A DNA stretch of 64,000 nt from the NCBI GenBank assembly GCA_964187785.1, contig OZ076414.1, positions 47,864,001-47,928,000 on the forward strand, in the 5' to 3' direction. This stretch comes from Amphiscolops sp. MND2022. Taxonomy: Eukaryota. Made by a program: the position numbers. Numbering within the stretch: the first letter of the stretch is position 1; the number at the start of each line of letters is the position of its first letter. Positions 9,001 to 15,000 of the stretch are shown one piece after another.

Positions 9001-12000
9001 GATTTTGAATAAATCTAAACATCTGACAAACGATCAGAAGTCAATCAAAAGTTTAGTCAGCTCACTCTCAAATTTAAATTACACCAATCTTAATCAAAAT
9101 GGAGAAGATTTCAGTTCAATTCAATACCGAAGCGCGTTGACAGCCAATTAAAAACGACTTAAAACAGAAGTAATTCAATTCCGACGCAAGTGAATCTAGT
9201 GAAGAGTGAACAAATTTTTGGCAATAAAATGTTCAATCAACTCAATCTCAATTTGAAATGGATAGAGAAACACTTCAAATGAAAATTGCTGAATGAAAAG
9301 AGACGTGGCTGTTGTTGGACGCATAAGGCTTGTTCGTCACGGATGAAGTTTTCTCTTTCGCTGCTTACCAAAAGGTTATATTCTCAGCAATTCATTCATT
9401 CAAATTGGAACTAATTCAAATTAATTGTATTGCTTCATTTTCTTCCCTTCTCAGCTAGAGCTCACAGCAAGTATTATTCTTTCAGTTCAGTCATTGTGGA
9501 AATTCAAAGCTACGCTAGAATACGGTTAGAATACGGCTCATTTTTATTGGTCGATTCACTTGATTTGTAAAGGCGAAGTAAAATAGAAAAACTTGGAATG
9601 ACGTCTAGAAGTAAAACAAAGGTAGCTGTTGTTGGTCACAAAAAGCTTACTCGTCACCAGAGTTGTAAAAGTTTATATTGTATTACAATATATTCCAATT
9701 AAATACAATTAATATATTTATTTAGTTGGAGCAAAAATACAATATATTTATTGAAATAAGGCAAACATTGTCAGAGCTCTACAAGATATTGCGCAGAAAA
9801 ATTATTGCAAAATAGAAATAAAATTTCCTTTAATATGCATTTTAAACGGACTATAGAAGTGAAAGACTATTAAGGGAAAAATTCACTAAGCTTTTCGCTT
9901 CCTATTCGAGAGTGTAGTCTTTCTTTATACAAATAAACAACATTGGGATGTTTGCCTTGTAAATGAATGTTTCTCTGCCAATAAAATATTTCACAATCTA
10001 TTGTATTTCTAGAATATTGCAGGACAATAATTTCCTTTATTGCTGAAATTGAATCAAACTATATTTATTTATTTTTTTTGCAAAAATCAATTTTAATACA
10101 ATATTTCACACCCCTGCTCGTCACTGTTCAAGTTTACCCGCTGTCTACTGAATTAGGATATTCTTGGCAAATGAATCTGCCAAATCGGAATTTAGATCGT
10201 CTAAATTGAAATTGTGTTGCCTCGGTTTCTTTCATTCGCAGCAAAATTTCTCTGTTTCACACCTACTAAGTCAGAAGAGGGACCAAGTGGCGTGAAGTAA
10301 GTCTGTTAGAAAGTGGACCATTGAGCAGCATTCTTTTGACTGGAGAAAAAACTCGTGTCGCCGGCTTACCCGTGCGAGATGTCCGGAGTGCAACATCGAT
10401 GAAGCAGTCAACGCTGCTTACCCATCATAATGGTTGTCTACCCGAATATGGACCAGAACTTGATAAACATTTCAAACTTTGAACTTAAACAATGCTTGTT
10501 ATTGTTCGTTGATAAAATGTTGCTTGTAGTTGTACATTTCATCTAAAATGATGATTGTTGAACGTCGTTATTGTTGCTTTTGTTTCACTCATAGGGTGTG
10601 TTGATCAATTGAAAAAAACAACAGGAAAGGTAACGTCAAAGTTATCAAAACAGTGCTAAATCTTTGTTTTATCATCTTAAATGGTAGAAAGGAATTAGAT
10701 CCAATGGTCCTATATATCTTTGCTACATTTAATTATTTGTAGTTCAATCATGAGGAAAACAGTCAAAAACGGCACGATGATCCACTTAAAAATCAGCTTG
10801 ATACTTTAGTACGTTTATTTGATACTGATTATGCAGCATTATGCAGTTTTCATAAAACAGCATATGCGGTTTTCAGAAGAAAACAGCATAAGAAGAAACC
10901 AGTATGCGGTTTTCAGAAGAAAACAGCATAAGAAGAAACCAGTATGCGGTTTTCAGAAGAAAACAGCATAAGAAGAAACCAGTATGCGGTTTTCAGAAGA
11001 AAACAGCATAAGAAGAAACCAGTATGCGGTTTTCAGAAGAAAACAGCATAAGAAGAAACCAGTATGCGGTTTTCAGAAGAAAACAGCATAAGAAGAAATC
11101 AGTATGCGGTTTTCAAAAGAAAACAGCATGAGAGGAAATCAGCATGCGGCTTTCACGTGAAAACAGCATAAAAAACAAACTATACCGTCTATACCGTTTT
11201 TTGGAGAAGACGGCATAGAAGGATGCATTACAGGACTCGGAAGAAAACAGCATAAGAAGAAATCAGCACACTGTTTTAAAGAGAAAACAGCATAAGAAGA
11301 AAATCAGTATGCAACCCGCAAATAAAACAGCAGAAGAAGAAATAATTACGTGATTTCGAAAGAGAACGACATATAAGAAAAGATTATGCGGCCTACGAAA
11401 AACAATATGCCGTGTATTGAAAGAAACAGCATGACAGAGTACAGATTATCCTGTTAGGCTGTATGATGAAAATAGACAAAGTACAACAAAATTCTGGCAT
11501 TTTTTATGCTGCCTCATGCGGATTTCATAACACAGCATAGAGACATAATATGCTATAGTATGTAGTACTCCCTGCAACAGTACGTCAGATAAATCGAGTT
11601 GAAACAACTTATTACACAAATCTAGTATGGAAATTTAGAAATGAGGCATTAAAGGAATAATGAGAATACTTACTTTACGTAGTTCAGGAAGATCATTGAG
11701 CCATTCAGATCCGGTGGCAGTTCGCAATTTCATCAGCAGAAATTGTAACACACTGTGGTAGTCGTAACGATCCAAAATTTTAACTGTGGGACCTGCAAGG
11801 GCCTTGTCCAAATCCTCGAAAGAGAAAGTAGGAACGATGCACACAGCTGAGGCCTGAACCAATTCTGTGACGAGAGATTTCGAAGTACGACCATCAAAGC
11901 CCGAAAGGGAATGGAGTGGAGGTATTGCAGGGAAGACTGCGAGGAAAGAACAAACAACTTGGAGGGTCCATTTAGGGGTGAAGAGAACGTTTGGGACCTC

Positions 12001-15000
12001 AGCTAGAAGAAGCTGATTGAGTACGTTCCTGGACCAGAAAATCAGGAACACTTGCATGTTGTCAAAATTTGAATTGACTTTGAGAGAGAATTGGCCCGAT
12101 TGCCCAATAGATGTAGTGGAATAGGACAACAGAGTTCGGAACATGTGGACAAGGATACCCTGAAATGTAAAAGAAACATCTGAATTGAGGTACACCAAAA
12201 TATTGAATATCAAAAGAATAATACATACGAAAATGCGTCTGTTTCTCCAATCGTACTGTGGAACCTTAGTCGGCCCACGAACTTCCAAACTAAGATTCGC
12301 CCAAAGTGAAGACAAAATATCTGCGTTTCCTCCGTTTTGAAGACCAATGAGCAGAATCCGAACTTGGGAACAAATTACTGCACAAGGTTCCAGATCGTCA
12401 GTAGCAACTGGGAGTCTTCTTTGCCCTGGCAATAGGTAACACTCCCCGAGGACAGGTGTGATAGGAATGGCGAGCTCAGCTCTTTCACGTGCTTTGTCTA
12501 GATCTTGTCCACTAAGTTCTACTTCATCGCGACCATAGAGCGGTAACCCAGGTATCTCCATTCGGATACGATGTTCCCGGAGTAAGTGCGTATCTGTTCT
12601 GTAATGTGACAGTATCTCAAGCGACCCCTTGGTCTTAAGGGACAGCTCAATCTGGCAGACTCAACAACGCCACTTGTGTGGGTTGTTTTCAGCATCAATA
12701 GGAGCAGTAACGAAAAACTTGAAAATCGGATGTTTTCTGTGCATACTTCCTGTTAATTGCAATCGCGGCCTGGGCCTTTTCGAAGCAGAGGGATGTTCCC
12801 TCTGAGGATCCCGATGTTGGCTGCCCTCTCTAATCTGAGATGATTTTCGACCCCGACGGGTGTTGCGGGAAGTGAGTGAAGGGATTTCTTCAATGGTACT
12901 CACAGGAGAAGCAACGAGTGACGAGTCAATTTGTGTTCCGCTAGTCTCAGTTTGTAACACGGTTGCAGTTGTTCTCACAGGAGAAATGGCGAATTGCTCC
13001 AATAATCTGGAGCTGATGGCGGTTGAGACTTCAGACACCAATACTTGCATACGTTGTTCCAGCGCTTGCAAGTCAGAACTAGTAGCAAAAGTAGGAGTAA
13101 CTGACGGCTGAGAAGTGGTTACTATGACAGGTTCTGCGGTAACATGGGCCGCATTCACTTCAGTATTAGGCAAAGTAGTCCTGTTCAGGAAACTAGAAAA
13201 GGGCGAGTTGCATATCTTATCGGAAGGAGATCCAGTGACGTTGATATCTCCTGACGTATCGTTTGCATCAGAATTCCTGGCTTGAGCAGGACTTGTCCCG
13301 AGCAGATTCTCAGACACGTCCTTGTTTGGCGAAGTGGGCGCGCTACGTTGCGCAAGACAACTGATCGCAGTCTCAGTCACGGGATTACTATATTCCTCAG
13401 GGTCCATGCTTTTATCTATGGAGTGCCTTATACCGTCAGCATCAACAGACGTACCTGGCACTTCCTGGTAACTAAGCTGGTGATCGGGAGTTGAATGGTG
13501 AGGTGGATCACCGAATGGGAGCAATAAAGCCAGATTATCGGCGGAGATTGGAGTCGGTGCAAGTGAGCCGGAACTATTGGCTGCTGAAACACAAGAGAAA
13601 TCAAGAAATTCAGAAAACAAGAAATAGTCAAAGACGACAGTCGACTGTTTAAAATAGTGGGAGCCTGATCAACTCTCACTTTAAACAAACAGAACTAGTT
13701 CGAAAAAGTATTCACGACTTGAAACAGGAAATCCGGATTTAATCCTGTGGATAGTTGGTGAAAACTGAAATTCGTTCAGCAATCGGGACAGGACACTCAA
13801 AAGGCCCTATGATTGTTTGAAATAAAATCTTTGAACCTACGCACCATTTAATTAAATTGGGCGAAAGAAATTCGGAAATACAAACCTTGTGTTGGCAGTT
13901 CGTTAGTCTGTTCTCCAGTCTCGTTGCATTCCATGACGTGAAAACGTCCACAATGAAAATTGATACGAAATCCAAAGTATAAAACTGGTGGAAGAAAATA
14001 ATCGAAATGAAAATCGGGTTAATGAGACAGTAACTATGACGAGTAGAAGTAAATGGGGAACACTGGTGAGAAAAGTCTTGAAGAAACAATAAAAATGGAT
14101 ATCTAAATGAAGATAATGGAAGAAAGAGACAATTAACAATGGGCTGTTTGGAAATTCTATATGACAAATACTGTTTGACGGAAATTACTATCGACCAAAA
14201 CTTTGAAACAAAGAAGCAGTAGAGCGTAAGTATTACAGCAAGAGAGAAGGCGTGGCTATCAACACAAAGGCAATAAAGCAAATGAATGACGTCAGTTTCA
14301 CAATGTACACGATTCAGCTTAAATCTGATTGGCCGAGAGAGTGCATGTGGCTAGGAAATATCTGCCAGTATGACCAAGTTAAATAATGCATTCGCTGCTA
14401 ACTTGAATATGCGGAAAAGAACGATGAACAGCATAGTGCAGTATTAGAGTTAATAGGTAGAATTATGATGCATTATGATGAATTCAGTGTGCGGCATATG
14501 ATGCAAATGATTACTTGCTTTTATATCATCTGTCATATGTTAGAAATACGAACCAAGTTGTTACATCAGAAGAAATGAATAATGCTATGAAGGTTTGAAA
14601 ACTTTCACTTTGATAAACCTGAATGAACCTATGATATATTTAATTATGAGCAATTAAAATTATTCAGACGGAACAAGAAGACGATAACCGAAACATAAAA
14701 GAAATTGAAAAGAAAATTTCAGGATCTGATGATTGTTTATATGATATTAACAATTTTACCGGTGCTATTCCCCCCATATCTCACGATAAATTACCTGAAA
14801 ACCCGGGAAATGGGTAATTCGAGATATGTTTTGATGCTATTTGTAAGAAAACCCCCGTAACCCAATAAAAAACTATAAAATCTTATCATTCTGATCATAA
14901 ATCTCCAAAAATTAGCCGCTTATTTTCCTCTCTCTCTCTTTCTCTTCAACAAATTTCTTGAGAAGTTAATAATCATATTGTGTTAAATCTTCTTGAAACT

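Follow-up and report, generated by a model that had tools for sequence, protein, structure and literature searches.

Some long terminal repeat (LTR) retrotransposons of plants and fungi carry an extra gene in antisense orientation. A review describes such genes, termed aORF-3R, between pol and the 3' LTR of the plant Ty3/gypsy elements Grande (gene23), RIRE2, Retand and PvRetro13, and of the fungal element Boty (brtn); as described there, they occur in most copies of a family, show no clear similarity to database proteins, and have a function that is unresolved and thought to be regulatory (PMC7264820). We analyzed a 64,000-nt stretch of the Amphiscolops sp. MND2022 genome (contig OZ076414.1, positions 47,864,001 to 47,928,000, forward strand; hereafter the window), which contains no N. 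Two Ty3/gypsy elements in the window, A and B, carry a cargo gene that, as in aORF-3R elements, is located between pol and the 3' LTR and is opposite to gag-pol. An initial annotation had proposed a third, highly divergent member of this gene, copy C, antisense within a further LTR element (C). Our reading, to which we give a probability of about 0.65, is that the antisense accessory gene of A and B has a second, deeply diverged lineage, and that copy C is a defective member of it.

The cargo differs from aORF-3R genes in its several exons with conserved introns, and in encoding both a predicted RNase H-like core and a BED-like zinc finger; the word 'intron' is absent from the review text (PMC7264820). 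The genome studied here also contains a BEL/Pao element. BEL/Pao elements are not known outside animals, and this one thus points to an animal host. A literature search found no spliced, BED/hAT-like antisense gene described for an animal element (supplementary files lay outside its scope, and the result is not proof of absence).

The other close comparison is with hAT transposases, in which a BED-type finger is followed by a spacer and an RNase H-like core; hAT-derived host proteins with BED fingers also exist. Like the hAT transposase Hermes (PDB 8sjd, 4d1q, 2bw3, 6dwz), the cargo protein has an N-terminal CCHH finger with BED-like spacing and, some 140 residues further on, a predicted RNase H-like core; in A and B, the region downstream of it is modelled at low confidence as all-helical. 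It differs from hAT transposases in lying inside an LTR retrotransposon and not between terminal inverted repeats (no inverted repeats bracket the cargo genes among the repeat pairs listed for the window). It also differs in having no zf-BED match above the cut-off, no sequence-level match in the PDB and no Dimer_Tnp_hAT domain in A/B last exons (0 of 24 at E ≤ 1) and, in the C family, in lacking the first two acidic residues of the core.

Gene structure of copy C and its homology with A and B

Copy C is encoded on the minus strand. Its long exon (13583-12229, with an acceptor at 13584) ends in RRIF followed by GTATGT, and the next exon (12159-11674; 486 nt, or 162 codons) contains QFSLKV and ends in LNDLPELRK, followed by a GTAAGT donor. 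In copy A, the finger exon ends at 53160 in YPKCQ before GT, and the following exon (53296-53784, 489 nt) contains QFGLHV and ends in FDNMPRLRE before GT. The corresponding exon ends in copy B are YPQCQ at 39484 and LDRLPNLRE at 38812, each before GT. All of these exon ends, the position of the 69-nt phase-0 intron of copy C, the exon lengths (486 versus 489 nt) and the QFSLKV/QFGLHV pair were found as the initial annotation had described them. The 69-nt intron is matched by an intron at the same position in both A and B, and the two introns bordering the 486/489-nt exon are conserved between C and A/B in both position and phase. Further upstream, a short segment (13886-13934, with an ATG and ending in phase 1) is a possible first exon of copy C. 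The window has a eukaryotic appearance, and its introns are short.

Pairwise searches gave little signal. With tblastn, the exons of copy C found only themselves in the window at E < 0.1, and BLASTP of copy C against A/B gave insignificant similarity (E = 0.007 to 2.8), so profiles were used instead. Searches were run exon by exon, the only query extending over both exons being the 329-aa ORF (open reading frame) of copy C, which includes the in-frame intron. Among 1.84 billion representative sequences, this ORF retrieved 176 clusters (50% identity) at E ≤ 1e-3, and 104 at E ≤ 1e-10, and these relatives were used to build per-exon profiles of the C family. Of the 765 ORFs in a six-frame translation of the window, the finger profile ranked B highest (E = 1.4e-5), followed by A (E = 1.8e-5), with the third-ranked ORF at 0.69. 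The profile of the next exon placed the A exon first (E = 7.5e-4) and the B exon at rank 4 (E = 0.076).

Profile-profile alignment of C with A/B, which had been set beforehand as the test that could refute the relationship, was significant for both exons. For the finger, hhalign gave a probability of 96.2 (E = 2e-9, 65 columns), and for the next exon 90.4 (E = 1.4e-6, 141 columns), as against 0.4-0.8 for mismatched exon pairs (E = 0.16 and 0.067). In the alignment of the next exon, residues 20-161 of C fall onto residues 20-161 of A, and both splice sites are therefore in register, both in phase 0. The profiles also found each other's members at E ≤ 1e-3: the C finger profile matched 115 of 122 A/B sequences, the A/B finger profile 57 of 150 C clusters, and the C next-exon profile 11 of 17 A/B sequences, with no matches in the mismatched controls. 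Over the common profile columns, C is 16-22% identical to A or B, compared with 58% and 32% between A and B. A chance or convergent resemblance of a short zinc-finger motif would fit the BLASTP values and the lack of any tblastn match beyond copy C itself. It is barely credible given that profile-profile and reciprocal tests are significant with clean controls, and that 141 columns of a second exon can be aligned as well, in register at both splice sites. By these comparisons, copy C is a genuine, very distant homologue of the A/B cargo gene, and the claim of a highly divergent third member, with both introns at the 486/489-nt exon conserved, is upheld.

Copy C resembles the A/B cargo in finger spacing, in two intron positions with their phases, in the length of the 486/489-nt exon, in its strand opposite the gag-like ORF and in its place near the 3' LTR. 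It differs from the A/B cargo in its low identity and in an N-terminal region that is unrelated and is fused to the finger exon, so that one long exon in C stands against a separate first exon in A and B. Two catalytic positions are non-acidic, downstream exons are absent, and the LTRs are unrelated and contain satellites.

The relatives of copy C are mostly exon-sized ORFs, all from European Nucleotide Archive (ENA) contigs and without names. Two 90%-identity clusters with 11 and 27 members, on different contigs, have open ORFs of 429 aa and 470 aa. For A/B, 120 clusters were collected with the finger exon and 15 with the next exon. No annotated host gene was found among the relatives, all of which are multi-copy ORFs. 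The C family is a large multi-copy family whose members retain the finger and the reading frame. Its read-through ORFs diverge right at the donor and realign right at the acceptor, and a GTN codon comes next in all 39 of those relatives whose ORF extends to the final codon of the finger exon. In a selection test of A versus B (ratio of nonsynonymous to synonymous substitutions, dN/dS), dS was saturated.

The long exon of copy C contains a single in-frame stop. In relatives, the N-terminal region and finger form one open frame (e.g., the 429-aa ORF of the 90% cluster with 11 members), and the stop is therefore private to copy C. Copy C keeps every column with a conservation of at least 80% among relatives (26/26 in the finger exon and 19/19 in the next exon), in an alignment that was seeded with copy C and hence is biased towards it. 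The exons that lie further downstream in A/B, a short one and a last one of roughly 410 aa, have no counterpart past the last donor of copy C, and the A/B last-exon profile had no match near copy C or in the 150 C-family clusters. The gene model stops about 130 nt short of the start of satellite-like sequence. Copy C is a truncated pseudogene, and no functional protein would be expected from it.

Zinc finger and predicted RNase H-like core

The spacing of the finger ligands, C-x2-C-x16-H-x5-H, is common to both families (91 of 120 A/B clusters and 54 of 150 C clusters) and presumably fits the BED signature. The four-ligand pattern is intact in none of the three copies in the window; one zinc ligand is substituted in each of A (52612-53160) and B (39484-40032), and 91 of 120 clusters of their family keep all four. 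The substituted ligands, like the in-frame stop and the missing downstream exons of copy C, had escaped the initial annotation. In both families the finger is the best conserved segment: the mean share of the majority residue is 0.68 in the C finger versus 0.44-0.56 in the rest, and 0.86 versus 0.62-0.81 in A/B. This argues against a rapid change of DNA targets and is the opposite of what changing DNA targets, one of the causes of diversification suggested in the initial annotation, would predict. A MAFFT alignment of 121 sequences, in which finger fragments were misaligned, was dropped and replaced by another alignment.

Within the A/B family, zf-BED is the commonest weak Pfam match (28 of 122 members at E ≤ 1, best E = 0.0015; the second commonest family matches 4). 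The scores displayed (three matches) are all under the 20.6-bit cut-off, and none of the A/B finger-exon relatives found has a precomputed zf-BED domain. In the C family, none of 76 members matches zf-BED, and two relatives give weak C2H2-type matches.

An AlphaFold model of the copy C ORF, built with 76 sequences, has a mean pLDDT (predicted local distance difference test) of 75.4, with values of about 90 or more in the core through approximately residue 270, 64-87 beyond it, and 34-46 for the 23 residues encoded by the intron. The 486-nt exon is predicted by this model to encode an RNase H-like fold. Foldseek searches of the PDB returned the Hermes hAT transposase (E = 9e-4 to 3e-3, 208-266 columns) and the catalytic domains of retroviral integrases (E from 3.4e-4, 116-148 columns). 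The description of the cargo as BED/hAT-like is strengthened by the fold with its Hermes matches and by the recurrent, though subthreshold, zf-BED matches in 28 of 122 A/B members. In the ESM Atlas, scores were 0.83 or lower or there was no match, and a scan for bacterial-type promoters and a search of Rfam were uninformative. The last exon of A/B was modelled as all-helical with a pLDDT of 44.6, too poor for a fold search, and the region corresponding to Dimer_Tnp_hAT is missing from copy C.

The retroviral integrases, whose catalytic cores have the best Foldseek E-values, raise the alternative that the core came from a retroelement integrase taken up in reverse, and not from a hAT transposase. 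The integrase matches span fewer columns than those to Hermes, and the finger of copy C, of CCHH type with BED-like spacing, precedes the core by about 140 coding residues. Integrases have an HHCC finger close to the core, and the arrangement in copy C is that of hAT transposases. In addition, zf-BED is the recurrent weak Pfam match and neither rve nor Integrase_H2C2 was detected in any cargo exon. We regard an integrase origin as improbable, and favour a hAT transposase as the source of the core.

In the A/B family, one position is D in 11 of 12 sequences and another is D or E in 12 of 14. On the C model, these two conserved acidic positions fall at the end of strand 1 and directly past strand 4. 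They appear to match the first and second catalytic residues of transposases with an RNase H-like fold, the assessment of catalytic residues being confined to these two. At the same columns, C-family proteins have T/S/N and F, and no column of the C family with D plus E at 50% or more was found between model residues 177 and 281. To judge from the model, the C lineage is most likely without nuclease chemistry and would have a DNA-binding accessory role instead.

The carrier of copy C and the neighboring elements

The direct repeats at 10356-10894 and 15933-16473 are 97.8% identical over their first 541 nt, and the similarity begins abruptly at TGT. They are interpreted as the LTRs of an internally deleted element, C (Table 1). 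Copy C is on the strand opposite a gag-like ORF at the end of the 1849-nt 3' LTR, in agreement with the antisense placement given in the initial annotation, and the distance from the cargo start to the 3' LTR is about 2.0 kb, much like the 1.7 kb of B. The ACTCG at 17782 is the only occurrence of this 5-mer in 16474-18751. The ORF at 17223-17798 has no relatives within the window, and may correspond to the gag start that A and B encode in their LTRs; its position is the one expected in a 3' LTR when gag begins within the LTR. A second sense-strand ORF (15032-15979) has no Pfam, Atlas or in-window relatives and could be a further accessory gene or a chance ORF. A single internal deletion would have removed the end of the 5' LTR, the primer-binding site (PBS), gag, pol and the 3' half of the cargo from element C.

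The LTRs of element C contain satellites at 10783-11392 (40-nt period) and 16460-16760 (50-nt period), with AACAGCAT and TATGCGG motifs in common. The window has 25 AACAGCAT sites on the plus strand, 22 of which are in the LTR copies of element C (12 in 10356-11673 and 10 in 15933-17781). A and B lack arrays of this kind, and the idea that they serve as binding arrays for the finger is therefore speculation, and for C only. Retand reportedly carries amplified tandem repeats.

The repeats and satellites of element C might alternatively represent a local duplication, with copy C outside any LTR element and belonging to a host family or some other mobile cargo. The difference in satellite period between the two repeat copies (40 versus 50 nt) is in keeping with this, as are the absence of pol, PBS and polypurine tract and an ACTCG match that is only moderately unlikely by chance. 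On the other hand, the TGT..ACA ends, the matching 5-mer at both flanks and an ATG-started ORF ending just past the LTR are coherent with one another, similarity starts at TGT in both copies, and the copy numbers of the C family are typical of mobile DNA. A local duplication is, in our estimate, quite unlikely, only marginally less so than the integrase origin discussed above, and the carrier of copy C is probably an LTR retrotransposon extending from 10356 to 17781.

The LTRs of A and B have the form TGTCATG..GACA, and both elements have the PBS TGGTGACAGGAGTC and a purine tract ahead of the 3' LTR. Their gag starts 322 nt inside the LTR end. Counted as stop-to-stop pieces of at least 110 aa, gag-pol of B is in 8 pieces; in A, gag-PR (protease) is in three to four and RT-IN (reverse transcriptase and integrase) in five, and the coding region of the BEL/Pao element is in six. 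In element A, the segment from RT through the cargo (51043-61029) is inverted relative to B: RT-RNaseH-IN (61047-57344) is read from the minus strand, and both gag-PR and the cargo are read from the plus strand. The LTRs of A are 98.7% identical, and the inversion, or an assembly error, is therefore later than the insertion. The BEL/Pao element within the 5' LTR of B (18994-28254, minus strand) encodes DUF1759, Peptidase_A17, RT, integrase and DUF5641, has LTRs of about 408 nt that are 95.8% identical, and is flanked by a GGTAT duplication. Weak DUF1759 matches are also seen in gag of B (28603-29460, E = 2.3e-5) and A (48394-49362, E = 4.1e-6), DUF1759 being matched by the BEL/Pao neighbor as well. 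Outside the recognized elements, a 46-nt tandem repeat is present at 7300-7501 (4.4 copies, 93% matches).

Table 1. Positions of the cargo genes, their predicted domains and their carrier elements in the window.
Feature	Position	Strand	Details
Cargo copy C, broken	11674..13934	-	Long exon (N-terminal region and finger), intron, 486-nt exon
Phase-0 intron of copy C	12228-12160	-	69 nt, GT..AG (..TTTCAG), in frame, stop-free
Zinc-finger domain of copy C	12586..12666	-	C-x2-C-x16-H-x5-H, BED-like spacing
Predicted RNase H-like core of copy C	11767..12090	-	Model residues 191-298; strand-strand-strand-helix-strand-helix-strand-helix
Element C, putative internally deleted LTR element	10356-17781	+	LTRs TGT..ACA; 5-bp duplication ACTCG
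5' LTR remnant of element C	10356..11540	+	Right end approximate; 3' part missing; 40-nt satellite array
Candidate complete 3' LTR of element C	15933..17781	+	1849 nt, TGT..ACA, 50-nt satellite array
Candidate target-site duplication, left copy	10351..10355		ACTCG
Candidate target-site duplication, right copy	17782..17786		ACTCG, right after ..ATCACA
Gag-like ORF, ATG-started	17223..17798	+	191 aa; last 559 nt of 3' LTR, stop 17 nt past LTR end
Sense-strand ORF, ATG-started	15032..15979	+	315 aa; between cargo 5' end and 3' LTR, ends 47 nt inside LTR
Cargo copy A	52070..55494	+	Four exons checked, all open; one finger ligand substituted
Cargo copy B, broken	37048..40583	-	One frameshift and one stop (in frame), both in the last exon; one finger ligand substituted
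Element A, Ty3/gypsy	47629..62695	+	Target-site duplication ACATC
Element B, Ty3/gypsy	18752..43222	+	Target-site duplication GATAT; 5' LTR split by BEL/Pao element

Origin, age and role of the cargo

Several observations weigh against reading copy C as a defective, retrotransposon-borne member of a second lineage of the A/B gene. At the sequence level, the reciprocal tests are weakest for the A/B next-exon profile, which matches just 1 of 150 C clusters at E ≤ 1e-3, and no exon of the three cargo copies or of their relatives gives a Pfam match above the cut-off of the family. Homology between the N-terminal region of C and exon 1 of A/B, suspected by eye, was rejected (probability 0.1). The search of the PDB with three family profiles gave no sequence match (best E = 0.92), and the Foldseek TM-scores are low (0.18-0.28 on the query), with E-values of only about 1e-3. 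The model was built on the ORF as found, including the 23 intron-encoded residues, and catalytic positions were assigned through this model of C and a profile alignment, not through a model of A or B. As for the carrier, no retroelement domain (gag, RT or integrase) was detected in 1-19000, element C has no match to the A/B PBS, a site that would fall in the deleted part, and no purine-rich tract is present ahead of 15933. By our own estimate, an ACTCG match would be expected by chance with a frequency of about 0.14. The ORF at 17223-17798 is without similarity to Pfam or to gag of A/B (E = 3.9), the latter as stated in the initial annotation, where the LTR-encoded gag start of element C was said to differ from those of A and B.

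In the proposed scheme, the accessory gene of A and B occupies the interval from pol to the 3' LTR and is read in the opposite direction. Introns in antisense cassettes are not spliced from the genomic RNA of an element and so survive reverse transcription. As the cargo would be antisense to the genomic RNA, its introns would be kept through each round of reverse transcription, and the persistence of intron positions across lineages can be explained by antisense introns not being removed from this RNA. The cargo protein would have the hAT layout, with a BED-type finger, some 140 residues and an RNase H-like core, followed in A/B by a helical region. It is most likely a hAT-derived DNA binder that serves the element, and in the C lineage it would be a sequence-specific factor with an accessory or regulatory role, and not a nuclease.

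Ancient carriage of the cargo by three LTR lineages is plausible. The statement in the initial annotation that the cargo predates the split of these lineages stays at the level of inference, because element C has no pol from which RT and cargo trees could be compared. The same gap leaves room for independent captures, in which the C and A/B lineages each took a different paralogue, with introns already present, from the host or from a DNA transposon, and the cargo would then be younger than the split of the LTR lineages. Such captures would account for N-terminal regions that are not homologous, for the difference in upstream exon structure and for LTRs and gag-like ORFs without similarity. 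They would not readily explain why the strand relation and the place beside the 3' LTR are alike in all three copies (1.7 kb in B, approximately 2.0 kb in C), why all three elements have a 5-bp duplication, or why the relatives are multi-copy ORFs with no annotated host gene among them. We consider independent captures unlikely, if less so than a local duplication, and retain descent of the C and A/B cargo from one antisense accessory gene as the preferred reading. A broader proposal is put forward tentatively, at rather less than even odds: a clade of animal Ty3/gypsy elements may long have carried an intron-bearing, antisense, hAT-derived gene in two lineages, the A/B lineage with acidic residues and the C lineage, without them, a pure DNA binder.

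Antisense extra genes are known from LTR elements of plants and fungi, and the review describes their origin and role as unresolved (PMC7264820). The cargo described here has a recognizable ancestry (a BED-like finger and a core in hAT layout), conserved introns and two lineages that are about 20% identical, which makes such questions testable: the age of the association, selection at the level of the element, and whether catalytic residues are retained in one lineage while the other is a pure DNA binder. The value of copy C, itself dead, is that it extends the gene family well past A and B, and into a carrier with unrelated LTRs. If true, the broader proposal would represent a kind of association not found described in the literature searched, namely, a stable partnership between a retrotransposon and the gene of a DNA transposon.

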